DNA of 16,650 nt from Frankiales bacterium. GTDB taxonomy: Bacteria; Actinomycetota; Actinomycetes; Mycobacteriales; SCTD01. The notes under the pieces are model-generated. The model did no database searches, was not told where the DNA came from, and was given only the letters and a program-made list of their open reading frames with translations. The position numbers and the translations under genes were made by a program. Each line of letters begins with the position of its first letter. Position 1 is the stretch's first letter. Location: positions 1 through 16,650 of the forward strand of contig JAOPVZ010000272.1 in NCBI GenBank assembly GCA_025965935.1, in the 5' to 3' direction. Shown here in pieces: positions 961 through 16,081 of the stretch.

Positions 961-1011
961 CTTGCCTGAACGTGTCCGGAAACTGTCGGATCTGTGTTCT
1001 AACGTCGTGCG

Positions 1012-1512
1012 GTGAAGAAATGCGGGACGTGCCACGAGATCAAGCCGCTCGACGATTTCAACCGCCTGCGGGGCGCGCCGGACGGTCGCCAGCCGCGGTG
1101 CCGCGACTGCTGCAAGGCTTGGTACGCCGCAAACAGCGCACAGCACAAGGCCAACGTGGCGCGCCGCACCCGCCAGGTGCTCGCGCTCTACTACTCCCGG
1201 GTCAGGGAGTACTTCGCTACGCACCCTTGCGTCGACTGCGGGGAGACCGACATCCGGGTGCTCGAGTTCGATCACCGGCCGGATGAGGTGAAGCTGGCGG
1301 ACGTGGCGCAGCTGATCAGTCGCCGGCAGCCGTGGTCGATCGTGCAGGCGGAGATCCTCAAGTGCGACGTGCGCTGCAGCAACTGCCACCGGAGGTTGAC
1401 CGGCGCGCGCGCGAACTCCTGGAGGCAGCGCGCCTACGAGGAGGACATCAAGCGGACGAGGGAGCTCGTGAGGAACCGGTTGCAGACGTTGTTCCCGAAA
1501 GCCTCCATGTGA
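1012..1512 (+). CDS. HNH endonuclease (166 aa) with an N-terminal Cys4 zinc ribbon.
   Basis: ORF MKKCGTCHEIKPLDDF...CRDCCKAWY (CxxC...CxxC ribbon) followed by CVDCGETDIRVLEFDHRPDEVK...CSNCHRR, which is the HNH ββα-metal pattern (C-x2-C ... DH ... N ... C-x2-C-H). GTG start at 1012 (only the ORF-track convention renders it M), with no obvious SD. The gene sits 52 bp downstream of the tRNA-like gene. The local GC content is visibly lower than the surrounding genes. Confidence 0.8.
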   Translation: MKKCGTCHEIKPLDDFNRLRGAPDGRQPRCRDCCKAWYAANSAQHKANVARRTRQVLALYYSRVREYFATHPCVDCGETDIRVLEFDHRPDEVKLADVAQLISRRQPWSIVQAEILKCDVRCSNCHRRLTGARANSWRQRAYEEDIKRTRELVRNRLQTLFPKASM

Positions 1513-1533
1513 GGGCTCGTCCGGGGGGACGTC

Positions 1534-1848
1534 TCAGAGACGGCTGACGAGATCCCGCACCCGGCCGTCGATGTCGTCGACGGTCGCGCGCACCACCTCG
1601 AGTGGCTGCTCCTTTGGGTCGTCGACCGTCCAGCCCTCGTAGCGCTTGCCAGGGAGACCGGGCAGGTCTTGCCGCAGCCCATCGTCACGACGACATCAGC
1701 CTCCTGGACGCCCTCGACGGTGGGCGTGGTCCTCGACGGGCAGCCCACGCTCCGCGAGCACCTGCGCGACCGCAGGGTAGCTACGTGCGACCTCGGACTG
1801 CGACTGGCCGGCCAGAACAGCCGTGATGACAAGGCGACGCTTCGACAT
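1534..1848 (-). pseudogene. Decayed paralog of the LMW-PTP-type arsenate reductase ArsC. It is frameshifted and lacks the Cys-X5-Arg P-loop.
   Basis: About 85% nucleotide identity to the intact arsC at 4762-5136 over about 250 nt. The segments encoding AVAQVLAERGLPVEDH, TVEGVQEADVVVTMGCGKTCPV and GKRYEGWTVDDPKEQPLEVVRATVDDIDGRVRDLVSRL* are conserved but lie in two different frames. Relative to the intact copy there is an 11-nt deletion near 1722 and a 1-nt deletion near 1650. Reading from the ATG at 1846-1848 gives MSKRRLVITAVLAGQSQSEVARSYPAVAQVLAERGLPVEDHAHRRGRPGG and then a TGA stop after 50 codons. The N-terminus has no catalytic Cys. Confidence 0.75.
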
Positions 1849-1886
1849 CCCGCAGCCTGCGAGTCACCGCTATGCCGAAGACCTGC

Positions 1887-1930
1887 GACACGCCATTCCG
1901 ATGTCCCGAGACACCCCCATTCCGATGTCC
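1887..1930. repeat. Tandem direct repeat, 2 x about 21 bp, GACAC(N1-3)CCATTCCGATGTCC.
   Basis: Unit 1 spans 1887-1906 (gacacgccattccgatgtcc) and unit 2 spans 1910-1930 (gacacccccattccgatgtcc). The 15-nt cores CATTCCGATGTCC... are identical, with a period of about 23 bp. They lie in the 300-bp non-coding gap upstream of the DyP-encapsulin operon. Confidence 0.7.
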
Positions 1931-1942
1931 TGAACCAGCGCA

Positions 1943-1987
1943 CTACCGGGGGCACTCTCGTGATCGCTCAGAGTGGCCCCCTACCGG
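1943..1987. promoter_or_regulatory. Near-perfect 11-bp inverted repeat with an 11-bp spacer, flanked by direct CTACCGG copies. It is a candidate operator or stem-loop.
   Basis: The left arm GGGGGCACTCT (1948-1958) pairs with the right arm AGAGTGGCCCC (1970-1980) at 10 of 11 positions. The spacer is cgtgatcgctc. CTACCGG occurs at 1943-1949 and again at 1981-1987 in the same orientation. No U-tract follows on either strand, so a protein-binding site is more likely than an intrinsic terminator. Confidence 0.5.
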
Positions 1988-2155
1988 ACGAGCGCCGCCG
2001 GAGGGAGGATCTAGGCAGTTCACCTGCGCACGGTGGATCACCGGGTAACGCGAAGTACGTGATGCCGTCGTGCATGGCTCATGTTGAGTGCGCGGCTCAC
2101 AGTCGCGTCCGGTCACGTCGCCGGTGGCGGGCCCGACCCCAAGGGGGGTGGATCG

Positions 2156-3214
2156 GTGGCCGAGGAGACCAGGTCGCAGCCTGTCCTGACGCCGCTCACC
2201 GAGGCGGCGATCTTCCTGGTGCTGACGGTCTCCACGGGCGGCGAGGACGTCGTGCGAGGGCTCCTTGCCGACTCCGCCGGGATCGTGCGTTCCGTCGGGT
2301 TCCGCGATCCTGACGGGGAGCTGTCCTGCGTCTTCGGGATCGGGTCGAACGCCTGGGACCAGCTCTTCGGCGGACCCCGCCCGGCCGAGCTGCACCCGTT
2401 CCGCGAGGTCGTCGGTGCGCGGCACACGGCAGTGTCGACGCCTGGGGACCTGCTGTTCCACATCCGCTCCCGCCGCATGGATCTCTGCTTCGAGCTGGCC
2501 GGGCACCTCGTCGGCCGGCTCCCCGGCGCGGCCGGTGTCGTGGACGAGGTCCACGGGTTCAAGTACTTCGACGAGCGCGACCTGATGGGCTTCGTCGACG
2601 GCACCGAGAACCCGACCGGCCCGTCCGCCCTGCCCGCAGCGACCATCGGTGACGGCGACCCGGGCTTCACCGGTGGCAGCTATGTGATCGTGCAGAAGTA
2701 CCTGCACGACCTCCCCGCGTGGAACGCGATCTCGGTCGAGGAGCAAGAGCGCGTCATCGGCCGGACCAAGCTCACCGACATGGAGCTGCCGGATGACGTG
2801 AAGCCGGCCAACTCGCACGTCGCGCTCAACACGATCGTCGACGAGAACGGCGAGCAGCTGCAGATCGTCCGCGACAACATGCCGTTCGGGCACGTCGGAG
2901 AAGGGGAGTTCGGCACCTACTTCATCGGCTATGCCGCGAGCCCCGCGGTGACCGAGCAGATGCTGGCCAACATGTTCATCGGCAGGCCAGCCGGCAACAC
3001 CGACCGCATCCTCGACTTCTCGGTCGCCGTGACCGGCTCCCTGTTCTTCGTCCCCACAGCGGACTTCCTCGAGAACCTGCCGCCTCGACCAGGCTCCGAC
3101 GCGACGGTCGACGCCGGCAGCAGCGCGCCTGCGCCGGTCGCGGCCACCCCCGACGACCCCCGACCCGATCACTCGCTGCGGATCGGCAGCCTGAGAAGGA
3201 GCTCCTCACCATGA
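2156..3214 (+). CDS. Dye-decolorizing (DyP-type) peroxidase, an encapsulin cargo protein with a C-terminal targeting peptide.
   Basis: Contains the GFVDGTENP DyP signature. It is conserved along its length with DyP family proteins (...SQPVLTPLTEAAIFLVLTV..., ...ELHPFREVVGARHTA..., ...DEVHGFKYFDERDLMGFVDGTENP). The C-terminal ...DHSLRIGSLRRSSSP matches the encapsulin cargo-loading consensus (SLxIGSLK/R). I chose the GTG at 2156 as the start because it is preceded by the RBS AAGGGGGG (2141-2148). The ORF-track start at 2081 is probably an over-extension. The stop codon overlaps the encapsulin ATG (ATGA). Confidence 0.9.
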   Translation: MAEETRSQPVLTPLTEAAIFLVLTVSTGGEDVVRGLLADSAGIVRSVGFRDPDGELSCVFGIGSNAWDQLFGGPRPAELHPFREVVGARHTAVSTPGDLLFHIRSRRMDLCFELAGHLVGRLPGAAGVVDEVHGFKYFDERDLMGFVDGTENPTGPSALPAATIGDGDPGFTGGSYVIVQKYLHDLPAWNAISVEEQERVIGRTKLTDMELPDDVKPANSHVALNTIVDENGEQLQIVRDNMPFGHVGEGEFGTYFIGYAASPAVTEQMLANMFIGRPAGNTDRILDFSVAVTGSLFFVPTADFLENLPPRPGSDATVDAGSSAPAPVAATPDDPRPDHSLRIGSLRRSSSP

Positions 3215-4011
3215 ACAACCTGCATCGCGAGCTCGCACCCATCTCGGACGCGGCCTGGACCGACATCGAGGACGAGGCGCGCCGCACCTTCACGCTGCAC
3301 GTCGCCGGCCGTCGTACCGTCGACGTGCTGGGCCCGTCCGGCGAGCAGCTGTCTGCCGTCGGCACCGGGCACCAGAGCGAGCTCGAGCCGCCCTATCCCG
3401 GCGTGCGTGCCAGGCGTCGCGAGATCGCCCCGATCGTGGAGTTCCGGGTCCCGTTCCGTGTCTCCCGCGACGCCGTGGACGATGTCGAGCGCGGCGCGAA
3501 TGACTCCGACTGGCAACCGGTCAAGGACGCCGCGAAGGAGCTCGCGTTCGCCGAGGACCGCGCCGTGATCGACGGGTTCCGGGCGGGCGGCATCACCGGG
3601 CTGCGTCCGGCCTCGTCCAACCCTCAGCTGAGCCTGCCAGCCGATCCGCGCGAGTACCCGACCGCCCTGGCGCAGGCGATGAGCGCGCTGCGCTTCGCGG
3701 GTGTGGGCGGTCCCTACAGCCTGCTGCTGTCCGCGAACCTCTACACGGAGGTCGTCGAGACGACGGACCACGGCTACCCGATCCACGAACACCTCATGCG
3801 CGTCATCGGCGACGACGGCGAGATCGTCTGGGCCCCTGCCATCGACGGCGCAGTCCTGCTGTCCACCCGCGGCGGCGACTTCCAGCTGCACCTGGGGCAG
3901 GACACCTCGATCGGCTACCTCTCCCACGACGCCCGCTCGATCGAGCTGTACGTCGAGGAGTCGCTGGCCTTCGTCGTCAACACCACTGAGGCGGCCGTCA
4001 ACCTGGTCTGA
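3211..4011 (+). CDS. Family 1 encapsulin shell protein (Linocin M18 / Cfp29-like).
   Basis: The N-terminus MNNLHRELAPISDAAWTDIEDEARRTF and internal motifs (VPFRVSRDAVDDVERGANDSDWQPVKDAAKELAFAEDRAVIDGF, SLLLSANLYTEVVETTDHGYPIHEHL, IVWAPAIDGAVLLSTRGGDFQLHLGQD) are characteristic of encapsulins. An RBS GAAGGAG sits at 3195-3201. The gene is translationally coupled to the upstream DyP gene. Confidence 0.95.
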   Translation: MNNLHRELAPISDAAWTDIEDEARRTFTLHVAGRRTVDVLGPSGEQLSAVGTGHQSELEPPYPGVRARRREIAPIVEFRVPFRVSRDAVDDVERGANDSDWQPVKDAAKELAFAEDRAVIDGFRAGGITGLRPASSNPQLSLPADPREYPTALAQAMSALRFAGVGGPYSLLLSANLYTEVVETTDHGYPIHEHLMRVIGDDGEIVWAPAIDGAVLLSTRGGDFQLHLGQDTSIGYLSHDARSIELYVEESLAFVVNTTEAAVNLV

Positions 4012-4202
4012 GCCGGGCGCACAGAGCGTCGCACGCTGTGACGTCCGACCTGACCCGGGTGGTCGCCAGGGCTCTGGTCGAGCCCCGTGCGGCGCTCAAA
4101 GATGCGGAGCGCGTCCGCTGATTCCTACGAACGAGGTATCGCCGCCCTCGCTCCAAGACTCCCCCAACAAGGGACCTCGACAGAGGAGAAGGGTCGATCA
4201 TC

Positions 4203-4628
4203 ATGGCACTGTCCGACAAGCTCAGCGATCTGGCTGCCCGGTCGAAGAAGACCGAGGACCTGGCAACTGCAGCCCGGCAGAAGGACCGCGCGAAGCTCGA
4301 GAGCCAGCGCGACAAGTTGAACACGTCGATCGCTGCCAACAACGCCAAGGCGAAGGAGCGCGCCGCGTCCGCCAAAGGCGAGACGCAGCAGTGGTGGAAC
4401 GACGCACGCTCGTCGATGGACAAGCGGTTCGCCACGGTGCGTGCCGCGGCAGACGAGCGGCGCAGCGAGCGGGACATGAAGAAGGCCGAGCGCCAGGCTG
4501 AACAGGCTGAACAGGACGCCGCGGACGCCATCGACTGGGCCGTCTACGTCCTCGACCAGGCCGAGTACGCCGTCATCGACGCGGTCGTTGCCCGCGCCGA
4601 CGCAGACGACCTGGCGCGCAGCGGCTGA
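4203..4628 (+). CDS. Hypothetical coiled-coil protein (141 aa), Ala/Arg/Glu/Lys-rich, with no recognisable catalytic motif.
   Basis: ATG at 4203 preceded by a strong RBS GAGGAGAAGGG (4183-4193). The sequence MALSDKLSDLAARSKKTEDLATAARQKDRAKLESQRDKLNTSIAANNAKAKERAASAKGETQQWWNDARSSMDKRFATVRAAADERRSERDMKKAERQAEQAEQDAADAIDWAVYVLDQAEYAVIDAVVARADADDLARSG is predicted helical or coiled-coil with an acidic C-terminal segment. It has no encapsulin targeting peptide. It sits 190 bp downstream of the encapsulin gene. Confidence 0.6.
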   Translation: MALSDKLSDLAARSKKTEDLATAARQKDRAKLESQRDKLNTSIAANNAKAKERAASAKGETQQWWNDARSSMDKRFATVRAAADERRSERDMKKAERQAEQAEQDAADAIDWAVYVLDQAEYAVIDAVVARADADDLARSG

Positions 4629-4663
4629 TCAGGGGCCAGGCAGCAGCGCTGGTAGGCATCGGC

Positions 4664-4682
4664 GGCGCGCGTGACCCGCGCC
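4664..4682. terminator. GC-rich hairpin between convergent genes. It is a possible bidirectional terminator, although no U-tract follows.
   Basis: The stem GGCGCG (4664-4669) pairs with CGCGCC (4677-4682) around a 7-nt loop cgtgacc. It lies in the 133-bp gap between the hypothetical gene, which ends at 4628, and the converging arsC, which ends at 4762. Confidence 0.35.
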
Positions 4683-4761
4683 ACTATCGGTGCGTTTGTC
4701 GCCCTCCTCACGGTCTGTGCGCTTGTCGTTGGGCGCGCCGAGACGGTGTCCGGGCTCGCTC

Positions 4762-5136
4762 TCAGAGCCGGGTGACGAGCTCTCGCACGCGAGCGTCGAT
4801 GTCGTCGACGATCGCGCGCACCACATCGAGTGGCAGGTCCTTTGGGTCGTCGACCGTCCAGGCCTCGTAGCGCTTGCCGGGGAAGACCGGGCAGGTCTCG
4901 CCGCAGCCCATCGTCACCACGACATCAGCCTCCTGGACGCCGTCGACGGTGAGCAGCGTCGGGACGTGGTCCTCGACGGGAAGCCCGCGCTCGGCGAGCA
5001 CCTGCGCGACCGCAGGGTTCACGCCGCTGCCGGGCTCGGAGCCGGCGGACCGGGCGTCGAGTCCGTAGTGGCGGGCGAGTACCTGGGCAGCTACGGAGCG
5101 GCCGCTGTTGTGGATGCAGGCGAAGAGCACGATCAC
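4762..5136 (-). CDS. arsC: Arsenate reductase ArsC of the low-molecular-weight phosphatase family. A thioredoxin- or mycothiol-coupled type is likely.
   Basis: The N-terminus (M)IVLFACIHNSGRSVAAQ carries the Cys-X5-Arg-Ser P-loop of LMW-PTP-type ArsC, and a downstream GCGETCP motif carries the additional cysteines. GTG start at 5134-5136, preceded by the RBS GAGGGG. The start overlaps the stop of the upstream MIP gene (GTGA). It is the last gene of an arsR-aqp-arsC operon. Confidence 0.85.
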   Translation of the reverse strand: MIVLFACIHNSGRSVAAQVLARHYGLDARSAGSEPGSGVNPAVAQVLAERGLPVEDHVPTLLTVDGVQEADVVVTMGCGETCPVFPGKRYEAWTVDDPKDLPLDVVRAIVDDIDARVRELVTRL

Positions 5137-5807
5137 GACGCGATCCCCTCGGCGATCTGGCGGGCGTCCGGGTACAGCACCCGGACGACGAGGAAGCCGA
5201 GCGCCCCACCGACGAGCTGCGCGCCGACGAACGCGGCGATGCTCGACGGGTCGATGCCGGCGAAGGTGTTGGTCAGCGACCGCGCCACGGTGATGGCGGG
5301 GTTGGCGAAGCTCGTGCTGGAGGTGAACCAGTAGGCAGCGGCGATGTAGCCGCCGACGGCGAACGGCACGGCGGTACGGCGGGAGCGCGCGACCCCGAAG
5401 ACGACCAGCACGAGCCCGAGGGTCGCGACGACCTCACCGAGCAGCTGGCCGTGCCCTCCACGGGAGTGCGTGCTCCAGGTGACGGCGGGTTCGTCGTACA
5501 TGAGGTTGGCGACCACGACGCCCAGGGAGGTGCCGAGGAGCTGCACCACGACGAAGACCGCCGCGTGCGTGGTGGAGACCGCACCGAGGCCGCGCTCGAC
5601 GAGCGTGACGACCGGGTTGAACGCCGCCGACACCGGACCGAGGGCGAGGATGAGCGCGATGAGCGCGGCGCCGGTGGCGATGCTGTTCTCCAGCAGCTGC
5701 AGGCCCCTGTCCTGCGTCAGCTCGCTGGCGGCGATGCCGGAGCCGACGACGGCAGCGGCCAGGAAGGCGCTGCCGAGCAGCTCGGCGAGCGCCCGCCTCA
5801 GCAGCAC
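5133..5807 (-). CDS. MIP-family channel (aquaglyceroporin), AqpS-like arsenite channel.
   Basis: About 225 aa with six predicted hydrophobic helices. The first half-helix motif is SAAFNPVVT, an NPV variant of NPA. The second is FANPAITVAR. I chose the GTG at 5805-5807 as the start; it overlaps the arsR stop codon. Everything upstream of it in the 282-aa ORF-track entry is an Arg/Pro-rich out-of-context extension that overlaps arsR. The stop overlaps the arsC start. Confidence 0.8.
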   Translation of the reverse strand: MLLRRALAELLGSAFLAAAVVGSGIAASELTQDRGLQLLENSIATGAALIALILALGPVSAAFNPVVTLVERGLGAVSTTHAAVFVVVQLLGTSLGVVVANLMYDEPAVTWSTHSRGGHGQLLGEVVATLGLVLVVFGVARSRRTAVPFAVGGYIAAAYWFTSSTSFANPAITVARSLTNTFAGIDPSSIAAFVGAQLVGGALGFLVVRVLYPDARQIAEGIAS

Positions 5808-6169
5808 GACGGGTCGATGGTGCGGCAGAGCGCGGTGAGGTTGTCGCGCAGCGGCCGGTAGAAGACGTTCATGCCGTCCCGCGTTCCCTCGACCAGGCCT
5901 GCTTCCCGGAGCTGCTTGAGGTGGTGGCTGACGGTGGCCTCGGTGACGCCCACCGCGGGCGCGAGGTCGCAGGTGCAGCACCCGTCCTCGCCGGCCGCGA
6001 GCACGAGCGACATGAGCCGGACCCGGACCGGGTCAGCGAGCGCCTTGAGTCGGAGCGCCACCTGGAGAGCGTCCTGCTCGCTCATGGCGCCGGCCGCGAG
6101 CGGTGAGCAGCAGACCGTCGCGGAGACGTCGAGGACGGGGAGCGTCTTGGGCACGAGTTCAACATACAT
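5798..6169 (-). CDS. arsR: ArsR/SmtB-family metalloregulatory transcriptional repressor.
   Basis: The winged HTH DLAPAVGVTEATVSHHLKQLREAGLV is preceded by the metal-site motif GCCTCDL in helix alpha-3, and an N-terminal vicinal Cys pair (SATVCCSPL) is also present. The ATG at 6167-6169 (MYVELVPK...) retains the N-terminal CC. Alternative starts are the GTG at 6193 and a later ATG at MSEQ. The gene is transcribed divergently from arsI. Confidence 0.8.
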   Translation of the reverse strand: MYVELVPKTLPVLDVSATVCCSPLAAGAMSEQDALQVALRLKALADPVRVRLMSLVLAAGEDGCCTCDLAPAVGVTEATVSHHLKQLREAGLVEGTRDGMNVFYRPLRDNLTALCRTIDPSCC

Positions 6170-6234
6170 CGAACTTGACGAATATCGAATCACCGAGCAA
6201 CCTCTGTGACATCAATCGAAGAAGGGACCATCCC
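6160..6234. promoter_or_regulatory. Divergent arsR / arsI promoter-operator region with three ATCGAA repeats and a TTGACG hexamer.
   Basis: This is an AT-rich 65-bp gap in a GC-rich context. ATCGAA occurs at 6168-6173, 6184-6189 and 6215-6220. A -35-like TTGACG lies at 6175-6180 on the plus strand. The sequence reads ACATACATCGAACTTGACGAATATCGAATCAC. Confidence 0.45.
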
Positions 6235-6675
6235 ATGAGCCGCGTCCAGCTGGCCCTCAACGTCGACGACCTCGAGGCCTCGATCGCCTTCTACAGCAAG
6301 CTGTTCAACGCCCAGCCGCACAAGGTGAAGCCGGGCTACGCGAACTTCGCGATCGTCGAGCCGCCGCTCAAGCTGGTGCTCATCGAGAACCCGGGCCAGG
6401 GCGGCTCGGTGAACCACCTCGGCGTCGAGGTCGAGTCCTCCGATCAGGTGCACGCGGAGATCGCGCGGCTCTCGGGGGCCGGCCTGTTCACGGCCGAGGA
6501 GATCGGCCAGACCTGCTGCTTCGCGACCCAGGACAAGGTCTGGGTCAGCGGTCCAGCCGGCGAGCGGTGGGAGGTCTACACCGTCCTCGCCGACAGCCCG
6601 ACCTTCGGCGCCGAGCCGACCGGCGACACGTGCTGCGGCCAGCAGGTCACCGAGGGGTCGGTGTGCTGCTCGTGA
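6235..6675 (+). CDS. arsI: ArsI / CadI-like protein of the glyoxalase-bleomycin-resistance-dioxygenase (VOC) family, a putative C-As lyase for organoarsenical demethylation.
   Basis: MSRVQLALNVDDLEASIAFYSKLFNAQPHKVKPGYANFAIVEPPLKLVLIENPGQGGSVNHLGVEV is a VOC-fold N-terminus. It has a vicinal Cys pair in GQTCCFATQDKVWVSGPAGERWEVY and a Cys-rich C-terminal tail (TCCGQQ...SVCCS), as in characterised ArsI enzymes and in the mycobacterial cadmium-induced CadI. An RBS GAAGGGA lies at 6221-6227. The gene is divergent from arsR. Confidence 0.8.
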   Translation: MSRVQLALNVDDLEASIAFYSKLFNAQPHKVKPGYANFAIVEPPLKLVLIENPGQGGSVNHLGVEVESSDQVHAEIARLSGAGLFTAEEIGQTCCFATQDKVWVSGPAGERWEVYTVLADSPTFGAEPTGDTCCGQQVTEGSVCCS

Positions 6676-6730
6676 CGTCCATGTCGCAAAACCGCCAGAC
6701 GAGGTAGTCGCCGGCCGCCAGGATGGTGGC

Positions 6731-8182
6731 ATGCACAGCCAGATGAGCCGGGACTTCGAGCAGTGCCTGCGGGCAGTGCAGGCGAAGGACGCCCGCTTCG
6801 ACGGATGGTTCTTCACCGCCGTCCGCACGACCGGCATCTACTGCCGGCCGAGCTGTCCCGCCGTACCGCCGAAGGCGACGAACATCGAGTTCCACCCGAC
6901 GGCGGCGAGCGCGCAGGCGGCCGGGTTCCGGGCCTGCAAGCGGTGCCGGCCCGACGCCAGCCCGGGCAGCCCGGAGTGGGACACCCGTGGCGATCTGGTG
7001 GCCCGAGCGATGCGGCTCATCGCCGACGGCGTCGTGGACCGCGAGGGTGTCCCGGGTCTGGCAGATCGCCTGGGGTACAGCCGAAGACAGCTCGAGCGTA
7101 GCCTGCTCGCCGAGCTCGGTGCCGGTCCGTTGGGGCTGGCCAGGGCGCAGCGGGCGCAGACCGCCCGGCTGCTCATCGAGACCACCGGCCTGGGGCTGGC
7201 AGACGTCGCGTTCGCGTCCGGCTTCGGCAGCGTGCGGCAGTTCAACGACACCGTGCGAGAGGTGTTCGCGACGACCCCCGGGGAGCTCCGCGCCAAGGCC
7301 CGACCGGGCGAACCGGCGAAGGGCACGGTCACGGTGAGGCTGCCCTTCCGGCAGCCGCTGTGGCCCGACAACCTGTTCGGTCACCTGGTCGCGACCGCTG
7401 TGCCGGGTGTCGAGGAGTGGTGCGACGGCGCCTACCGGCGCACCCTGCGGCTCCCGCACGGGCACGGCGTGGTCGCCCTCGCCCCGACACCCGAGCACGT
7501 GCGGTGCACCCTGCACCTGCAGGACATGCGCGACCTGTCCGCCGCGATCGCGCGGTGCCGGCGGCTGCTCGACCTCGACGCCGACCCAGTCGCTGTCGAC
7601 GCGCAGCTGAGCCAGGACCCGCTGCTGGCGCCCCTGGTGCGCAAGGCGCCCGGCCGTCGGGTGCCACGCACCGTCGACGGCGACGAGCTCGCCATCCGCG
7701 CCGTGCTCGGGCAGCAGGTCAGCACTGCAGCCGGACGCACCCTGGCCGGCCGGCTGGTCACCGCCTTCGGCGACGCGGTGGAGGACGACACCCTGACGCA
7801 CCTCTTCCCGACGGCGGAGCAGCTCGTCGACGCCGGCGAGCACCTCGCCATGCCGCAGTCCCGACGCGACACCGTCCTGCGGCTGGCCCGTGCCCTGGCC
7901 GACGGTGACCTCGACCTCGACCCAGGCGTCGACCGCGAGGATGCGAGGCACCGGCTCGCCGCGCTCAAGGGCATCGGACCGTGGACCGTCGAGACCGTCG
8001 CGATGCGCGCCCTCGGCGATCCCGACGCGTTCCTGCCGACCGACCTCGGCGTGGCCCAGGGCCTCAAGGCCCTCGGCGCGACGCACACCGACACCTGGCG
8101 CCCTTGGCGCGCCTACGCCGTGCAGCACCTCTGGGCGCTCGGCGACCACCCCATCAACCGGATGCCTGGAGGCAGCTCATGA
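6731..8182 (+). CDS. alkA: Ada regulatory domain fused to AlkA: a methylphosphotriester-sensing Zn domain, an AraC HTH and a 3-methyladenine DNA glycosylase II.
   Basis: The N-terminus FTAVRTTGIYCRPSCPA...AGFRACKRCRP is the Ada Zn(Cys4) methyl-acceptor domain. An AraC-type HTH follows (LADRLGYSRRQLERSL...FASGFGSVRQFNDTVREVF). The C-terminal half is the AlkA N-terminal plus HhH-GPD fold (LKGIGPWTVETVAMRALGDPDAFLPTDLGV) with the catalytic Asp. An RBS AGGATGG precedes the ATG at 6731. The same fusion architecture is known in mycobacteria. Confidence 0.9.
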   Translation: MHSQMSRDFEQCLRAVQAKDARFDGWFFTAVRTTGIYCRPSCPAVPPKATNIEFHPTAASAQAAGFRACKRCRPDASPGSPEWDTRGDLVARAMRLIADGVVDREGVPGLADRLGYSRRQLERSLLAELGAGPLGLARAQRAQTARLLIETTGLGLADVAFASGFGSVRQFNDTVREVFATTPGELRAKARPGEPAKGTVTVRLPFRQPLWPDNLFGHLVATAVPGVEEWCDGAYRRTLRLPHGHGVVALAPTPEHVRCTLHLQDMRDLSAAIARCRRLLDLDADPVAVDAQLSQDPLLAPLVRKAPGRRVPRTVDGDELAIRAVLGQQVSTAAGRTLAGRLVTAFGDAVEDDTLTHLFPTAEQLVDAGEHLAMPQSRRDTVLRLARALADGDLDLDPGVDREDARHRLAALKGIGPWTVETVAMRALGDPDAFLPTDLGVAQGLKALGATHTDTWRPWRAYAVQHLWALGDHPINRMPGGSS

Positions 8183-8655
8183 CCTACGCCGTCGTCGACT
8201 CACCGATCGGCCCCCTGACCCTCGTCGCCAAGGACGGAGCCGTGGCCGGTCTCTACATGACCGACCACCGTCACATGCCCGTCATCCAGGGCCAGCGTGA
8301 CGACAGCGCGCTGCCCGACCTGCAGGAGCAGCTGGTGGCGTACTTCGCCCGCGATCTCAAGGAGTTCGACGTGCGGACCGCCGTCACCGGCAGCCCGTTC
8401 CAGGTCCGGGTGTGGACCGCGCTCGCCCAGATCCCGTACGGCGAGACCTGGAGCTATGCCCAGCTGGCGAGGGAGATCGGGTCACCGGCCGCGGTCCGCG
8501 CAGTCGGCCTCGCCAATGGCAAGAACCCGATCAGCATCGTGGTGCCGTGCCACCGGGTGGTGGGCAGCAACGGCAGCCTCACCGGGTACGGCGGTGGGCT
8601 CGCCCGCAAGCAGCAGCTGCTGGAGCTCGAGCGGGGCCTAGCCTCCACCACGTGA
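8179..8655 (+). CDS. ogt: O6-methylguanine-DNA-protein-cysteine methyltransferase (Ogt/MGMT).
   Basis: MTYAVVDSPIGPLTLVA... with the active site IVVPCHRVVGSNGSLTGYGGGL (PCHR). The ATG at 8179 overlaps the alkA stop (ATGA). Confidence 0.9.
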   Translation: MTYAVVDSPIGPLTLVAKDGAVAGLYMTDHRHMPVIQGQRDDSALPDLQEQLVAYFARDLKEFDVRTAVTGSPFQVRVWTALAQIPYGETWSYAQLAREIGSPAAVRAVGLANGKNPISIVVPCHRVVGSNGSLTGYGGGLARKQQLLELERGLASTT

Positions 8656-11102
8656 CCGACGTCGAGCGACTGCTGGCCGAGCTCACCCTCGACGAGAAGG
8701 CGTCGCTCACCTGCGGCGCCGACATGTGGACCGTGCCGGGCGTCTCACGACTCGGCATCCCGGCCGTAACCGTCACGGACGGACCCAACGGCGCCCGCGG
8801 CTCCGCGCTGCTCGGCGCCGGCCGGGTGAGCGCCGCCTGCGTCCCCTGCGGCTCGGCACTCGGCGCGTCCTGGGACCCGGCACTCGTCGAGCAGGTCGGT
8901 GCCGTGCTCGGCGAGGAGGCCCGTACGAAGTCCGCCCGGGTGCTGCTCGCGCCGACGGTCAACATCGTCCGGTCGCCCCTCGCCGGCCGCAACTTCGAGT
9001 GCTACTCCGAGGACCCACTGCTCTCCGGGAGCATCACCGCTGGCTTCGTCCGCGGCGTGCAGAGCCGCGGTGTCGCCGCGACGGTGAAGCACTTCGTCGG
9101 CAACGAGGCGGAGCACGAGCGCACCACGATCAGCAGCGACATCGACGAGCGGGCGCTACGCGAGGTCTACCTCGTGCCGTTCGAGCATGCCGCCGCTGCA
9201 GGTGTGCAGGCCGTCATGACCTCCTACAACCGCCTCAACGGGCGCTGGTGCTCGGAGGATCCCGAGCTGCTCCACCTGCTGCGCGGCGACCTCGGCTTCG
9301 ACGGCGTCGTCATGACGGACTGGTTCGCCGTCGGCTCGACGCTCGGCTCGGCTGCCGCAGGTCTCGACCTGCAGATGCCCGGGCCGGCGCGCTTCTACGG
9401 TGCTCCGTTCGCTGATGCGGTCCGCACTGGCGCGCTGCCCGAGGTGTCTCTCGACGCCATCGTGCGTCGCTGGCTGACGCTGGTGGACCGGCTCGACGCG
9501 TGGCGCGACGTCCCTGCGCCCGAGCGGGCAGTCGACCTGCCCGCGCACCGGTCCGTCGCACGCCGCGCCTGTGCCGACTCGACCGTGCTGCTGCGCAACG
9601 ACGGGCTGCTTCCCTTGTCAGACACGGGTTCCGTCGCACTGATCGGCCCCAACGCGACCCGTGCGCACATCATGGGTGGCGGCTCGGCGCAGTTGCGTGC
9701 CCACTACGCCCGCTCCCTCGCCGACGTGCTTGCCGAGCGGGTCGGCAAGGTTGTCGTGGAGCCGGGTTGTCTGATCGACAAGACCGTGCGGCCGATCGCG
9801 ATCGCCTTCGAGGTGACCTTCTCCGACCGTGACGGTGAGGTGGTCGGCACGAGTACCGAGCGCGACGGCCGACTGCTGTGGTTCGACGCGCCCCTCGAGG
9901 GGCTCGACGCCGACCGGTTCTCCTTCACCGCCCGCGGCACCCTCGTGGTCAGCCACACCGGCCTGCACCGCTTCGCGCTGGTGCAGGCCGGCCGGGCCCG
10001 CGTGACGGTGGACGGCATGGTGGTCCTGGACGGCTTCGTGGACGTGCCCCCGCCCGGGACCGAGCTGTTCGGTCTGGGGTCGGTCGAGGTCGAGGCGCTC
10101 GTCGAGCTGACAGCCGGCACGTCGGTCGCGGTGGTCATCGACTACAGCACCGAGGGCGCCGTGATCCTGCACGGCTGCAAGATCGGCCACCGGCCGCCCG
10201 CGGATGTCGACCTGATGTCGCTGGCCGTGCAGGCGGCGTCCGACGCGGACGTCGCGGTCGTGGTCGTCGGCACCAGCAACGAGTGGGAGAGCGAGGGTGA
10301 GGACCGGGACTCGCTGCACCTGCCGGGTGAGCAGGACGAGCTGGTACGGCGGGTCTGCGCGGCCAACCCGAGGACGGTCGTCGTCGTCAACGCGGGCGCG
10401 CCGGTGCAGATGGACTGGGCGGACGAGGCGGCGGCCATCGTCGTCCCGTGGCTCGGCGGACAGGAGATGGCGGAGGCGCTCGCCGACGTGCTGCTCGGCG
10501 TCTCCGAACCCGGCGGTCGCCTCCCGGTCACGGTGCCGCTGCGGATCGAGCACACCCCGTCGTACGGGGCCTTCCCGGGGAGCAACCATCACGTCGGCTA
10601 CGCGGAGGGGCTGCTGGTGGGCTATCGCTGGTTCGACTCGCGTCGGCTGCCGGTGCGCTACCCGTTCGGTCACGGGCTGTCGTACACGACCTTCTCGTGG
10701 ACCGACCCGCGGGTGACCGCCGAGGGCGTCGAGGTGACGGTCACCAACACCGGCGATCGCCGCGGCGCCGAGGTGGTGCAGGCCTATGTCGAACCGCCGC
10801 CCGGACCGCTGTTCCGGCCGCGCCGCGAGCTGCGCGCGTTCCAGAAGGTCTGGCTGGACCCGGGCGGGACCGAGACGGTGCGGCTGCAGCTGGCGGACAG
10901 GGCGTTCGCGTACTGGGACCCGGCGACCTCCGAGACGGCGCATCTCCAGGAGCGGCTCGGGGATGGCGCCGTGGTCCCGGCCGGGTCGAGCACGGGCTGG
11001 CGCGAGAAGGCCGGCTGGTACGAGGACCCGGGCGAGTACCGGGTGCACCTGGCGCGGTCGGCCGCCGATGTCGTCGCGAGCCTGGTGGTCGTCCGGCCTT
11101 AG
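8652..11102 (+). CDS. Glycoside hydrolase family 3 beta-glucosidase with an inserted PA14 domain (about 816 aa).
   Basis: From the GTG at 8652: (V)[49 protein letters not shown] is the GH3 N-terminal domain. [13 protein letters not shown], the catalytic-Asp region [13 protein letters not shown] and the C-terminal [10 protein letters not shown] motif are all present. There is a central PA14-like insert. The GTG overlaps the ogt stop (GTGA). The 896-aa ORF-track entry starting at 8412 is an upstream extension through ogt in another frame context. The TAG stop is at 11100-11102. Confidence 0.9.
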
Positions 11103-11269
11103 ACGCGGGCGGGGCCGAGCACGATGTCGATGGTGGTCGTCTTGCCGGCGCCGTTCGGGCCGAGGAAGGCGACCACCTCGCCGCGCGCGATCGTGAGGTC
11201 GATCCCGTCGACCGCACGCACCTCGCCGAAGTGCTTGCGGACCGCGGTCAGCTCGAGCGCGTTCGTCAC
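11099..11269 (-). pseudogene. Truncated ABC-transporter ATP-binding gene. Only the N-terminal 56 codons, through Walker A, remain.
   Basis: Reverse-complement translation from the GTG (complement of 11267-11269) gives [56 protein letters not shown]. This is a canonical DrrA-like ABC N-terminus with the Walker A motif GPNGAGKT. An RBS GAGGAAG lies 8 nt upstream, and the start overlaps the SDR stop (GTGA). The reading frame ends at a TAA (complement of 11099-11101) that shares bases with the GH3 TAG. Nothing ABC-like follows in any antisense frame. Confidence 0.65.
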
Positions 11270-12009
11270 GTGAGCCGCTTCCTCGCGATCGCCGACGCCC
11301 TGCGGCGCAGACCGGTGGGCAGCAGCTTCGTCGCGGTGACGATCGCCTTGTACTGCGGGCCAGCAATGCTCACCGTCCGGCCCCGGTCGAGGTCACGGAG
11401 CGCCTCCCGCACCACCTGGTCAGTCGACAGCCAGAGGAGCTCGGGAACCGCGGTCATGTCCATGCTCGCGCGGCCGTGGAACTCGGTGTGCGTGAAGCCG
11501 GGGCAGACCGCGACGGCCCGAACCCCGCGATGGCGGTACTGGAGGTCGAGCGACTCGGTGAAGTTGGTGACCCAGGCCTTCGAGGCGGAGTACGTCGCAC
11601 CGCGCACTCCTGCGGAGAAGCCGGCAACGCTGCTGACGTTGAGGATCGCCCCCGAGCCGCGCGCCAGCATCGCCGGCAGTGCGGCGTGGGTGAGTCGCAG
11701 CACCGCGCGGACGTTGAGGTCGAGCATCGCCAGCTGGTCCTCGAGGGAGCTCTCGTCGAACGCCGCCCCGAGGCCGCGGCCGGCGTTGTTGACCAGCAGG
11801 TCGACACCGTCGGCGAGCCGCGCCTCGACGAGCGCGCAGCCCTCGCCGGTGGACAGGTCGGCGGCGAGCACCTCGGCGTCCGGCACCTGGCGACGCAGCC
11901 GGTCGCCGTCCCGGGCGACGACCACCAGGTCGTACCCGCGGGCCCGGAGGGGCCCGACGAACGCGGCACCGATCCCGGCCGTGGCCCCTGTGATGAGAGC
12001 AGTTGGCAT
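11266..12009 (-). CDS. Short-chain dehydrogenase/reductase (SDR family oxidoreductase).
   Basis: [17 protein letters not shown] (the TGxxxGIG Rossmann motif), NNAG, and the catalytic YSASK. I chose the ATG at 12007-12009 as the start. A GTG three codons upstream is an alternative start. Confidence 0.9.
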
Positions 12010-12032
12010 GGGTTGCACCCTAGGCTCGGCCC

Positions 12033-12524
12033 GTGTTCACCCCTGACGCGGTCGACGCACGGATCCTGCAGGCGCTCGTCGCCGACCCGCGGATCACGGT
12101 CAGCGAGCTGGCCGAGCGAGCCGGCGTGGTCCGCAACACCGCGCAGGCCCGGCTCGAGCGGCTGCAACGCGAGGGGGTCCTCGGCCCCAACGACCGCGGG
12201 GTGGAGATCCAGCAGCTCGGCTTCAACGTGGCCGCAGTGGTGGCGATCAACCTGCGGCACGCCGAGATCGAGGAGGCGGTCGCGGGTCTGGCAGCCAATC
12301 CCGCCGTACTGCTGGTGGAGGAGGTCGCCGGCTCGACGGGCGACCTGCTCGTGCGGGTGGCCGCCCGGTCGACGGACGACCTGCAGCGGGTCGTGCATTC
12401 CATCCTGTCGACCGCTGGGGTCGTCTCCACCACGACCCAGGTCGTGCTCAAGACCCGGGTGCCGTTCCGGGTCGGGCCGTTGCTCGAGGACTTGGGCGGC
12501 TCGCCCACGGCAGACAACGTCTGA
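12033..12524 (+). CDS. Lrp/AsnC-family transcriptional regulator.
   Basis: The N-terminal HTH (DAVDARILQALVADPRITVSELAERAGVVRNTAQARLERLQREGVL) is followed by a C-terminal RAM/AsnC-type ligand domain. GTG at 12033 is the first possible start after an in-frame TAG at 12021. The start lies only 23 bp from the divergent SDR start, so leaderless transcription is likely. Confidence 0.85.
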   Translation: MFTPDAVDARILQALVADPRITVSELAERAGVVRNTAQARLERLQREGVLGPNDRGVEIQQLGFNVAAVVAINLRHAEIEEAVAGLAANPAVLLVEEVAGSTGDLLVRVAARSTDDLQRVVHSILSTAGVVSTTTQVVLKTRVPFRVGPLLEDLGGSPTADNV

Positions 12525-12533
12525 GGCAGCAGT

Positions 12534-12550
12534 CTGAGCAGATTGCTCAG
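12534..12550. promoter_or_regulatory. Perfect palindrome CTGAGCA-gat-TGCTCAG, 10 bp downstream of the Lrp stop and upstream of the oxidoreductase gene.
   Basis: The 7-bp arms are exact reverse complements separated by a 3-nt spacer, in an AT-richer stretch (agtctgagcagattgctcagtattgcc). It could be an Lrp operator or a terminator-like hairpin. Confidence 0.45.
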
Positions 12551-12608
12551 TATTGCCCTGGTCGATTGACTCTGGTGGCAGTCGAGAACCACGCTGGCTG
12601 CTCCGCCC

Positions 12609-15600
12609 ATGACCTGGAGCCCCTCCGTGACCGCAGTGGACGACCGTCCCGCACGCAAGCTCTACACGCCCGCCGACCGGTACGTCCCGGGCGCCCGTCC
12701 GGTGCTGCTGACCGGTGTGCAGGCGATCGCGCGCTTCCTCGTCGAGCAGAACGTCCGCGACCGGGCCGCGGGCCGCAACGTGGCGTCACTGCTGTCCGGC
12801 TACCCCGGCTCGCCGCTGGGCGGTCTCGACAAGCTGCTGCACGGGCTCCCGCAGCTCAAGAGCGCCCACCAGATCCACCTCGTCCCCGGCCTCAACGAGG
12901 AACTCGGGGCCACCGCGGTCTGGGGCAGCCAGCAGGTCCCCGGCACCATGAACGTCGACGGCGTCCTCGGGGTCTGGTACGGCAAGGGCCCCGGCGTCGA
13001 CCGATCCGGCGACGCCCTCCGGCACGGCAACACTTACGGCGCCAATGCCGGCGGCGGCGTGCTCGTCATGGCGGGTGACGACCCGGGTGCCAAGTCCTCC
13101 ACGGTCCCGTGCACCTCCGAGCGGACCCTGGCCTCCTTCGGCATGCCGGTCCTCACGCCGCGCAACGGCGAGGAGCTCATCGCCTTCGGGATGTACGGCG
13201 TGGCACTGAGCAGGTTGTCCGGCTGCTTCGTCGGCATCAAGGTCCTGGCCGATGTCGCCGACGGGCTGTGGACCGTCGACAAGGACTTCCAGGCAGTCGA
13301 CATCACCGTCCCGCAGGTCGAGTGGAACGGTCGGCCCTGGACCTACCAGCAGTACCTGTTGAAGGACCCGCGCGACTCGGTCGTCGCCGAGGCCGCCCTC
13401 GTGGGGCCGCGGTGGGAGGCAGTGCAGGCGTTCGGCGCAGCCAACCCGCTGGACGAGATCACTGCCGACGCACCGGGGGCGCGCTTCGGCATCGTCAGCA
13501 CCGGCACGGCCTACGACGCGACGCTGCAGGAGCTGCGCGACCTGGGCATCACCGACCCTGCGGCGGTCGGCATAAGGGTGCTCCGGGTCGGCATGCCGTA
13601 CCCGCTCGGCGCCGGCCTGGTCCGCCAGTTCGCGCAGGGCCTCGAGCAGCTCCTCGTCGTGGAGGAGAAGACCTCGTTCCTCGAGGCGCAGATCAAGGAC
13701 GTCCTGTACGGCTTGACGGGGGCCCCTGCCGTGCACGGCAAGAGGGGCCCGGATGGCCGGCTGCTCGTGCCTGCTGACGGGCAGGTCTCGGCCGACCGCT
13801 TGGACGGCGTCCTCCGCTCGCTGCTGGAGGGCTGGGTTCCCTTGGCCCCCAGGCGTTCTGGCCCGCGGCTGCAGCTGTCGATCAGTCCGGTCAAGCGCGT
13901 CCCGTACTTCTGCTCCGGCTGCCCGCACAACACCTCGACACCGGTGCCTTCAGGCTCCCTCGCCTCAGGCGGCATCGGCTGCCACACGATGGTCACCCTC
14001 GCCGAGCGCCCCGACCAGAGCGTCCTCGGCCTGACCCAGATGGGCGGGGAGGGAAGCCAGTGGGTCGGCCAGCACCTGTTCACCGACGTCGAGCACATCT
14101 TCCAGAACGTCGGGGACGGGACCTTCGCGCACTCGGCTCAGCTGGCGGTGCAGTTCTGCGTCGCCGCAGGCGTGAACATCACCTACAAGATCCTCTACAA
14201 CTCGGTCGTCGCGATGACCGGTGCGCAGCACGCCGAGGGCGGTCTGTCGGTCGAGAAGCTGACGCACAAACTGCACGCCGAGGGCGTCGCGCGCATCGTG
14301 GTCGTGACCGACGAGCCTCGCAAGCACCGGAAGTCGTCGTTCGCCCCGGGCGTCACCGTCCGGCACCGCGACCAGATGGACGCCGTGCAGAAAGAGCTCC
14401 GCGAGGTCCCTGGAACCACGATCCTCATCTACGACCAGCAGTGCGCCAACGAGGCGCGGCGGCTGCGCAAGCGCGGCAAGCAGGAGGTCCGCTCGACCCG
14501 CGTCATCATCGACGAGGCGACCTGCGAGGGCTGCGGCGACTGCGGCCAGAAGAGCAACTGCCTGTCGGTGCAGCCGGTCGAGACCGAGCTCGGTCGCAAG
14601 ACCCGGATCGACCAGACCTCCTGCAACACCGACTACTCCTGCCTCAAGGGCGACTGCCCGTCCTTCCTCACCGTCCAGGCCGTCTCGAAGAAGCCCACCC
14701 GCAAGGCGACACCGGAAGCCCCGTCGGTCGCGGAGCCGGTCCTCGCGGCCAGCGCCGACGTCTTCCTGGCGGGCATCGGCGGGACCGGCATCGTCACCGT
14801 CAACCAGCTGCTAGCGACCGCAGCGCTGCGGCACGACCTCGACACCACCGGGCTCTCCGGGCTCGACCAGGTCGGTCTGTCGCAGAAGGCCGGTCCCGTG
14901 ACCAGCCACCTGCGCTGCGGCGACAAGGGCCCGGCCAACCGGGTCGGTCACGCCACCGCCGATGTCGTGCTCGCCTTCGACGCGCTCGTCATGGCGGACC
15001 AGAAGAACCTCGCGGTCTGCTCACCGGAGTTCACGATCGCGGTCGTCTCGACGTCGGAGACCCCGACCGGTACGCAGGTCGCCGACGCGCAGGCACCCAA
15101 GACCGACGTCCCGGGCCAGGTCCGCAAGATCCGCGACTCGGTCGTGAAGGTCTTCGAGATCGATGCGCTCGCCGCCAGCGAGCAGCTCTTCGGCTCGACC
15201 GCCCCCGCCAACCTGCTGCTCGTGGGAGCGGCCTACCAGCTCGGCGTGCTCCCCTTCCCCGCCGCCGCGATCGAGGACGCCATCGACCTCAACGGGGTGG
15301 CGGTCAAGGCGAACGTCGCCGCCTTCCGCTGGGGCCGCGTCGCCGTCGCGGACCCGGGTGCCTTCGCGGCCGCCACCACCGCGACGTCGGCTACGCCGAA
15401 GCGGGTGTTTGCACTGGGCGACTCGCCGCTCGAGGACGAGACCCGGCGGTTGGTCGAGGTGCGCGCGCAGCTGCTGCTCGAGCACTCCGGCCTGCGTGCG
15501 GCCCGGGACTACGTCGCGGTCGTCGAGCGCGCCTGGGCGGCCGAGCGGGCGATCATGGTCGCCACCGACTACTCGCAGGCCGTCGCCCGCGGCGTCGCGC

Positions 15601-16043
15601 ACTTCGCGGCGTACAAGGACGAGTACGAGGTCGCCCGTCTCCTCACCCGCCCCGAGCTGCTCGCCGAGGTGCAGGCCCAGGTCCCCGGTGCCACCAAGGT
15701 CCAGTACAACCTGCACCCGCCGGCATTGCGCGCGATGGGGATGGACCGCAAGCTCAAGCTCGGCGCCTGGTCGCGGCCGGTGCTGAAGGCGACCGCCCGC
15801 GGGAGGTTCCTGCGCGGCACCCGGCTCGACCCGTTCGGTCGCGGCGAGGTCCGCCGGGTCGAGCGCGAGCTGCTCGCCTCGCACACCGCCCTCGTCGAGC
15901 AGCTGTCTGCGTCGCTGACCGTCGAGTCCTACGCGACCGCCGTCTCCGTGGCCGGCGCTGCCGAGCTCGTCCGCGGCTTCGAGGACGTCAAGCTCCGCAA
16001 CGTCGCGCGCTACCGCGAGACCCTCGCCGCCCTCGGCGTCTGA
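12609..16043 (+). CDS. Indolepyruvate ferredoxin oxidoreductase family protein, a fused IorA/IorB-like 2-oxoacid:ferredoxin oxidoreductase (1144 aa).
   Basis: The N-terminal TPP-binding/IorA-like region is present (RPVLLTGVQAIARFLVEQ...GYPGSPLGG...). An embedded 4Fe-4S ferredoxin cysteine cluster reads CEGCGDCGQKSNCLSVQPV...CNTDYSCLKGDCPSF. The long C-terminal IorB-like region and the adjacent Lrp regulator gene make a typical actinobacterial arrangement. Confidence 0.9.
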   Translation: MTWSPSVTAVDDRPARKLYTPADRYVPGARPVLLTGVQAIARFLVEQNVRDRAAGRNVASLLSGYPGSPLGGLDKLLHGLPQLKSAHQIHLVPGLNEELGATAVWGSQQVPGTMNVDGVLGVWYGKGPGVDRSGDALRHGNTYGANAGGGVLVMAGDDPGAKSSTVPCTSERTLASFGMPVLTPRNGEELIAFGMYGVALSRLSGCFVGIKVLADVADGLWTVDKDFQAVDITVPQVEWNGRPWTYQQYLLKDPRDSVVAEAALVGPRWEAVQAFGAANPLDEITADAPGARFGIVSTGTAYDATLQELRDLGITDPAAVGIRVLRVGMPYPLGAGLVRQFAQGLEQLLVVEEKTSFLEAQIKDVLYGLTGAPAVHGKRGPDGRLLVPADGQVSADRLDGVLRSLLEGWVPLAPRRSGPRLQLSISPVKRVPYFCSGCPHNTSTPVPSGSLASGGIGCHTMVTLAERPDQSVLGLTQMGGEGSQWVGQHLFTDVEHIFQNVGDGTFAHSAQLAVQFCVAAGVNITYKILYNSVVAMTGAQHAEGGLSVEKLTHKLHAEGVARIVVVTDEPRKHRKSSFAPGVTVRHRDQMDAVQKELREVPGTTILIYDQQCANEARRLRKRGKQEVRSTRVIIDEATCEGCGDCGQKSNCLSVQPVETELGRKTRIDQTSCNTDYSCLKGDCPSFLTVQAVSKKPTRKATPEAPSVAEPVLAASADVFLAGIGGTGIVTVNQLLATAALRHDLDTTGLSGLDQVGLSQKAGPVTSHLRCGDKGPANRVGHATADVVLAFDALVMADQKNLAVCSPEFTIAVVSTSETPTGTQVADAQAPKTDVPGQVRKIRDSVVKVFEIDALAASEQLFGSTAPANLLLVGAAYQLGVLPFPAAAIEDAIDLNGVAVKANVAAFRWGRVAVADPGAFAAATTATSATPKRVFALGDSPLEDETRRLVEVRAQLLLEHSGLRAARDYVAVVERAWAAERAIMVATDYSQAVARGVAHFAAYKDEYEVARLLTRPELLAEVQAQVPGATKVQYNLHPPALRAMGMDRKLKLGAWSRPVLKATARGRFLRGTRLDPFGRGEVRRVERELLASHTALVEQLSASLTVESYATAVSVAGAAELVRGFEDVKLRNVARYRETLAALGV

Positions 16044-16081
16044 GCCGTCGGCGAAGCACGGGCCTGGCAGCATCGCCGATC

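Follow-up and report, generated by a model that had tools for sequence, protein, structure and literature searches.

We analyzed a window of 16,650 bp, the complete contig of a Frankiales metagenome-assembled genome (MAG), and concentrated on a 56-codon open reading frame (ORF) at 11099–11269 on the minus strand, which lies between an SDR gene and a converging GH3 gene. Its 56-aa product is listed in the databases as a 'transport system ATP-binding protein'. The ORF is very likely a non-functional scar: a single recent deletion of 1,454 bp would have removed most of a DrrAB-like ABC-2 exporter operon and left only the two outer ends of it behind. An initial annotation had seen here an ABC ATPase gene cut off cleanly after the Walker A motif, exactly at the stop codon of the GH3 gene, and had taken the cut as the boundary of an acquired or rearranged block. 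According to the alignments described below, the deletion is internal and starts and ends within the two-gene ABC operon. What it left is an ordinary gene remnant of recent origin, and the loss of an accessory gene in this way is an already known kind of event.

The relatives needed for this comparison were found by searching species-representative genomes with the SDR protein, which gave Frankiales RYN_109 (L001, a MAG), and by a subsequent protein search, which gave closer strains such as L113 (ENA ERZ926382). The SDR of L001 is 94% identical to that of the window, and L113 displays 97.7–97.9% nucleotide identity to the window on both flanks. In L001, the SDR gene (10001–10753) is followed by an ATPase gene (10750–11640, 296 aa) and an ABC-2 permease gene (11637–12374, 245 aa). 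Both gene boundaries consist of a GTGA overlap, and the converging GH3 gene ends at 12371. L113 likewise carries an intact SDR gene, a 296-aa ATPase gene and a 245-aa permease gene, with GH3 converging. A full-length ortholog of the fragment is therefore present at the same syntenic position in these close relatives, as expected for a true gene remnant. The ancestral order would have been SDR, ATPase (296 aa) and ABC-2 permease (245 aa), linked by two GTGA overlaps, with the permease TAA overlapping the TAG of the converging GH3 gene. A blastn comparison aligned window positions 4801–11112 with L001 18662–12361 and window positions 11106–16045 with L001 10913–5971; the flanks are equally collinear with the window in L113 and in two further relatives, L114 and L002. 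The 52 ATPase-derived residues of the ORF are identical to those of L001 and differ from L113 in one residue. The exporter pair shows good conservation where it occurs: the remnant is 95–96% identical to the ATPases of L113 and L001 and 66–70% identical to those of the more distant L004 and L121, whose permeases are 71–72% identical to the L113 permease.

The initial annotation had proposed to align the SDR-ATPase-permease locus of a relative to the window in order to define the breakpoint, and this could be done to the base. By MAFFT alignment and exact string mapping, 1,454 bp of L001 (10907–12360) are missing from the window. The ATPase-derived sequence ends with base 11113 and the permease-derived sequence begins with 11112, so that the junction lies 11 nt upstream of the stop codon, between identifiable and collinear flanks. 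On the minus strand the window reads GTGCTCGGCC / CCGCCCGCGTCTAA (in codons, ...ATC GTG CTC GGC C / CC GCC CGC GTC TAA GGCCGG; the 30-mer across the junction is GTGCTCGGCCCCGCCCGCGTCTAAGGCCGG). At the corresponding point the ATPase genes of L001 and L113 read GTGCTCGGCC / TGGCCCGTCCG (...ATC GTG CTC GGC C / TG GCC CGT CCG...), and the ends of their permease genes read GGGACA / CCGCCCGCGTCTAA (...CGG GAC A / CC GCC CGC GTC TAA GGCCGG). The ORF can thus be divided into a 5' remnant of a DrrA-like ABC ATPase gene (11113–11269, minus strand), which comprises codons 1–52 with the GTG start and Walker A plus the first base of codon 53, and a 3' remnant of the ABC-2 permease gene (11099–11112, minus strand), the 14 nt CC GCC CGC GTC TAA that include the last four codons, ARV and stop.

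The permease genes of L001 and L113 end in exactly these 14 nt. The C-terminus they belong to, RFRRDTARV followed by the stop, is invariant in the four orthologs from L113, L001, L004 and L121. In L121, a histidine kinase gene and not GH3 follows the permease, and the RFRRDTARV end is kept there. Because the C-terminus is invariant even beside a different neighbour, the ARV tail must be permease-derived and the change must be a deletion in the window. The reverse scenario, an insertion in the relatives, was considered and rejected, since the window keeps both the 5' end of the ATPase gene and the invariant 3' end of the permease gene. Through the deletion, ATPase codon 53 would have kept its first base, to which the last two bases of the fifth-from-last permease codon became attached. 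Relative to the ATPase gene, the permease gene is read in frame +2 (11637 − 10750 = 887) and the deleted length is 2 mod 3; therefore, the fusion is in frame and uses the permease's own stop codon, its end reading ...IVLG-P-ARV.

At 11099–11102, the minus-strand TAA (reverse complement of 11099–11101) and the plus-strand TAG of GH3 (11100–11102) overlap tail to tail and have 11100–11101 in common, as had been pointed out in the initial annotation. The same CTAA overlap with GH3 already exists in the intact loci (in L113, the permease occupies 1851–2588 on the plus strand and GH3 2585–4030 on the minus strand), which explains why the truncation looked as if it were located 'exactly at' the GH3 stop. 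Of the proposal of a clean breakpoint instead of gradual decay, the essential part holds, since one clean deletion accounts for the structure; its position has to be corrected from the GH3 stop to 11113/11112, and the TAA is that of the permease. A missed frameshift that hides a full-length ATPase would not explain the absence of 1,454 bp of L001 sequence, and the same genes are intact in L113. The loss appears to be recent, since the intact allele exists in a strain that is about 98% identical (L113).

We found no repeats longer than 7 nt that link the two breakpoint regions, and the longest common word (7 nt) lies away from the junction; a repeat-mediated deletion was rejected on these grounds. 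Perfect microhomology at the junction is also absent, the only resemblance being a GCCCG that is found two bases inside on both sides. The lack of repeats and of perfect microhomology suggests an illegitimate, RecA-independent joining, for example by end joining or replication slippage, and makes homologous or site-specific recombination at the junction unlikely. A scan of 10600–12800 for terminators and promoters found nothing. The net effect would be the loss of an accessory exporter that leaves the neighbouring SDR and GH3 genes untouched.

Could the truncation be the border of an acquired or rearranged block, such that recombination at about 11100 introduced GH3 and all that follows it? 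The region following the SDR gene is indeed variable in more distant relatives (L003, L116–L121 and L123; 81–87% SDR identity). There, the SDR gene is followed by a Lut operon (LutABC; L003, L118 and L119), by a BNR-repeat gene together with GH3 (L123), by an ABC pair plus a HisKA_3/GerE two-component system (L121), or by GH3 at a distance of only 15 nt (L120); an unannotated 491-aa gene is also among the genes found at this place, and L116 and L117 carry another gene behind a scar-like spacer. The 3' side of the SDR gene thus has the appearance of a variable spot or rearrangement hotspot, in which the exporter would be an accessory module. However, in L001 and L113, which are the nearest relatives to have intact transporters, GH3 already faces the permease gene tail to tail and the stops overlap, collinearity with the window holds for both of them on either side of the junction, and the 14 nt that end in the stop codon come from the permease and are not foreign. 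The collinearity, which extends to L114 and L002, leaves no room for a block boundary at about 11100, and it is hardly conceivable that GH3 arrived in this way. For the same reason, nothing has replaced the permease genes, contrary to what had been supposed: GH3 was already in place.

The single deletion also accounts for what is still present in the ORF and what is gone. The features listed in the initial annotation could all be found. The SDR stop codon TGA (11266–11268) and the GTG start of the remnant (11267–11269) overlap in a GTGA at 11266–11269 on the minus strand, an arrangement typical of translational coupling that also occurs between SDR and ATPase in the intact loci of L001 and L113, and a putative ribosome binding site, GAGGA, is located at 11280–11284, 10 nt upstream of the GTG. 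The Walker A motif or P-loop GPNGAGKT (11138–11161, minus strand; residues 37–44) fits the GxxGxGK[ST] pattern perfectly and is the sole ATPase motif remaining. The Q-loop, ABC signature, Walker B, D-loop and H-loop are absent from the remnant, which ends at residue 56. In the orthologs, CSGGQQQR, LLVLDEPTTGMD and FATHY are found beyond column 130 of the ATPase alignment; the Q-loop, CSGGQ signature, Walker B (LLVLDEP) and H-loop were in the deleted part. The remnant matches the Pfam profile ABC_tran (PF00005) at profile positions 2–33 of 137 only (E = 2.7e-8) and retains just the first beta strands and the P-loop of the ATPase fold.

When the full-length orthologous ATPase and permease were compared by tblastn with the whole window, ATPase residues 1–55 were recovered and no other match was better than E = 0.1, in agreement with the earlier observation that nothing ABC-like follows the fragment. 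Neither profile searches nor tblastn revealed an ABC2_membrane domain in the window, so the cognate permease is missing as well. Because the Q-loop, signature, Walker B, D-loop and H-loop and the permease partner are gone, the product of the remnant should be unable to act as a transporter ATPase. Cotranscription of the remnant with the SDR gene probably persists, as does its translation via stop-start coupling. An anomalous conservation of the fragment (98.7% identity to L001, against an assumed flank divergence of 'roughly 10%') was considered and rejected, since the sliding identity is 93–99% over all of 10400–11575.

A search with the fragment itself, which had been suggested as the route to the full-length ortholog, did not lead there: the 56-aa query gave only proteins shorter than 100 aa, apparently because the word index favours short targets. 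The ortholog could be reached by way of the SDR search. Look-ups of the exact sequences of the SDR protein and the 56-aa product gave no record. Many of the best matches to the fragment (proteins P0002–P0022) are N-termini of ABC ATPases shorter than 100 aa on long contigs of up to 724 kb. They diverge shortly after Walker A (after LGL) into similar junk tails (...AAWSPR, ...SPP) and look like frameshifted calls of full-length genes, either assembly errors or real pseudogenes. Such truncated ORFs with only a Walker A motif seem to be common in the databases, as so many of the best fragment matches belong to this type.

We could also observe other deletion alleles of the same two genes. In L114, L115 and L002, the ATPase-permease pair has been deleted almost completely and in frame, from ATPase codon 3 to the sixth-from-last permease codon, and scars of 4–7 codons are left. 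L114 (97–98% nucleotide identity to the window) carries the SDR-GH3 sequence GTGACCGTCACCGCCCGCGTCTAA at about 940–965, which reads VTVTARV and stop. L115 (87–92% identity) has GTGACCGACACCGCCCGCGTCTAG at about 930–955, reading VTDTARV and stop, and L002 (87–89% identity) has ATGACCGGCGTCTAA at 1403–1417, which is the L115 type minus 9 nt. All three have the left junction TGACCG in common, and the scars therefore probably descend from one older deletion. The old scar allele occurs across strains that are 87–98% identical to the window and has possibly been spread by recombination. Of the permease gene, 18 coding nt and the stop codon survive in it, compared with 11 nt plus the stop in the window, and the window in turn keeps 157 nt of the ATPase gene that are missing from the older allele. 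Since neither allele can derive from the other, the deletion in the window must be independent of the one in L114, L115 and L002. In L122 (SDR 99% identical), the contig ends 131 nt into the ATPase gene, so that the alleles are indistinguishable there. A scan of metagenome contigs for the SDR turned up few close relatives: L048 stops where the SDR gene ends, and the others are at most 68% identical with no ABC genes nearby.

The occurrence of at least two independent deletions among strains that are 97–98% identical, together with one old scar allele across lineages that are 87–98% identical, raises the question of whether the exporter pair is a long-lived presence/absence polymorphism that has been lost repeatedly, with scars that may be under selection to stay in frame. 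Selection on the frame is conceivable, because, in this high-GC genome with its tail-to-tail genes and overlapping stops, ribosomes that arrive by coupling from the SDR gene would run on from an out-of-frame scar through hundreds of codons on the antisense strand of GH3. We regard this broader interpretation as tentative and rather improbable.

A related idea is that the remnant has been kept for a function of its own, either as a small P-loop peptide or as a translated 'landing pad' that stops SDR-coupled ribosomes before they run into the antisense strand of GH3. The deletion in the window, the deletion in L114 and L115 and the additional loss of 9 nt in L002 all preserve the frame and the native stop, and the other two minus-strand frames are open to 10741 and 9618, so that out-of-frame scars would encode junk proteins of very roughly 170–550 aa. 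However, three in-frame events have a chance of about 1/27, the alleles are few, and the pattern was noticed post hoc. The scar ORF of L116 and L117 (starting at the GTG in GTGA) has no stop codon in the 60 nt examined, and the start has been lost in L120. Moreover, the ORF is unique to the contig of the window, and what it encodes is a 52-residue piece of a RecA-like domain in which the remainder of the core fold and the catalytic motifs are missing. The exact 56-aa protein forms a cluster confined to this one contig, and the relatives that span the junction have either the 296-aa gene or a scar of 4–7 codons, so an independent conserved small gene, which had been named as the case that would contradict truncation, was not found. 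A retained function is very unlikely in view of these findings, and we continue to regard the ORF as a by-product of the deletion.

Some points weigh against the deletion scar as we describe it. The contig comes from a MAG and the junction depends on the assembly alone; the mechanism of joining is deduced from the absence of repeats; and at the junction one or two bases of the true ancestor could have been different from those of L001 and L113. That the remnant is transcribed and translated is deduced solely from the retained GTGA overlap and the GAGGA. The remnant also shows no degenerative mutations, which at 157 nt and about 2% divergence from L113 is uninformative either way. The first of these points would become serious if pieces of an intact locus had been wrongly joined in the contig and the organism actually had the full ATPase and permease genes. 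As a MAG contig, the window could be affected by such an assembly or binning artefact, and mixed populations are plausible, since differing alleles of the locus exist at 97–98% identity. However, a de Bruijn assembly can make such a mis-join only where a k-mer is shared, and the longest word in common between the breakpoint regions is 7 nt. The two flanks belong to one locus, have the same orientation and join in frame, and independent assemblies contain other clean deletions of the same genes, so such deletions do occur here. An artefact therefore seems highly improbable, and a genuine deletion remains the explanation that we prefer.

The genes on both sides of the scar are intact. The SDR gene (11266–12018, minus strand) encodes 250 aa from its GTG (gene callers start at Met-4), matches Pfam adh_short with E = 2.2e-39 and is 94–99% identical to its orthologs; it was the first gene of the former SDR-ATPase-permease operon. 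Beyond it, a 163-aa plus-strand ORF (12033–12524) encodes an AsnC/Lrp-type regulator that is kept beside the SDR gene in all relatives. It overlaps a 212-aa minus-strand ORF (12020–12658) that has no family match and is probably spurious. The GH3 beta-glucosidase-like gene (8652–11102, plus strand) contains Glyco_hydro_3, Glyco_hydro_3_C, PA14 and Fn3-like Pfam domains and has an intact C-terminus. Its 3' end is collinear and about 95–97% identical in L001, L002, L113 and L114, and GH3 is the ancestral neighbour of the operon. The longest GH3 ORF starts at 8412, and homology begins only at about 8652 (VTDVERLL...). The 80 codons upstream of the homology (8412–8651) overlap the end of an Ogt (6-O-methylguanine methyltransferase) gene at about 8180–8655, which comes after an Ada-AlkA fusion at 6731–8182.

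Further away, the window harbors a DyP peroxidase gene (2081–3214) and an encapsulin gene (3211–4011) between two direct repeats of about 250 nt (1532–1778 and 4760–5018) that are 90–93% identical and lie 3,228 nt apart. L001 and L002 have neither DyP nor encapsulin and only a single copy of the repeat, and the synteny with L001 breaks directly after a tRNA-Lys(ttt) at 877–961. The real indel block of the contig relative to its sisters is the DyP-encapsulin region at about 965–4800, which is unrelated to the exporter scar. The right-hand repeat is located inside an LMWPc/ArsC-like gene (4762–5136, minus strand). This gene is part of an ars-like minus-strand cluster that continues at 5133–6193 with a MIP/aquaporin gene (5133–5981) and an ArsR-type helix-turn-helix gene (5798–6193). 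At 5133/5136 the MIP and ArsC ORFs adjoin each other, and coupling or fusion of the two is conceivable.

For annotation, these results mean that the 56-codon ORF is a pseudogene scar, and metabolic or resistance inventories of this MAG should leave it out of their transporter counts. The two genes have been deleted independently at least twice, which shows that the DrrAB-like exporter is dispensable in these soil Frankiales, and either deletion could be under selection for loss. There is also a lesson of method: a gene that seems truncated 'exactly at' the stop codon of its neighbour may simply inherit the stop of a deleted downstream gene. The value of the analysis lies mainly in correcting an annotation and in documenting, on a small scale, repeated loss at the population level.

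The lost genes resemble a well-known type of exporter. The intact ATPase of L001 scores above the cutoff for ABC_tran and shows a weak DrrA1-3_C match; its best NCBIfam match is drrA (TIGR01188) with 207 bits against a cutoff of 312. The intact permease scores above the cutoff for ABC2_membrane, and its best match is drrB (TIGR01247), which is weak at 42 bits against a cutoff of 223. The pair is DrrAB-like in architecture, without being a member of these families by the curated thresholds. The type example of DrrA/DrrB is the daunorubicin-resistance transporter of Streptomyces peucetius. Like such ABC-2 exporters, the intact genes of L001, L113, L004 and L121 encode an ATPase with a single nucleotide-binding domain and a small ABC2_membrane permease that are translationally coupled; the window, in contrast, retains 52 N-terminal ATPase codons and four C-terminal permease codons and encodes no transporter. 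ABC-2 exporters also occur in modules with a HisKA_3 kinase and a NarL/GerE-type response regulator, and the orthologous pair in L121 is directly followed by such a two-component system. In L001 and L113, however, the pair abuts GH3 and has no adjacent two-component system, and a regulatory link cannot be asserted in the case of the window.

The deletional bias of bacterial genomes, by which pseudogenes and gene remnants are made by deletion, is an established concept, and the scar fits it well: one deletion took away an accessory function that can be spared, the neighbours on either side of the scar are conserved and intact, and the intact gene is found in sister strains. It differs from the usual remnant in being an in-frame fusion that keeps its start, its coupling signal and a native stop codon, which is why it has been annotated as a small 'ATP-binding protein' and not flagged as a pseudogene.

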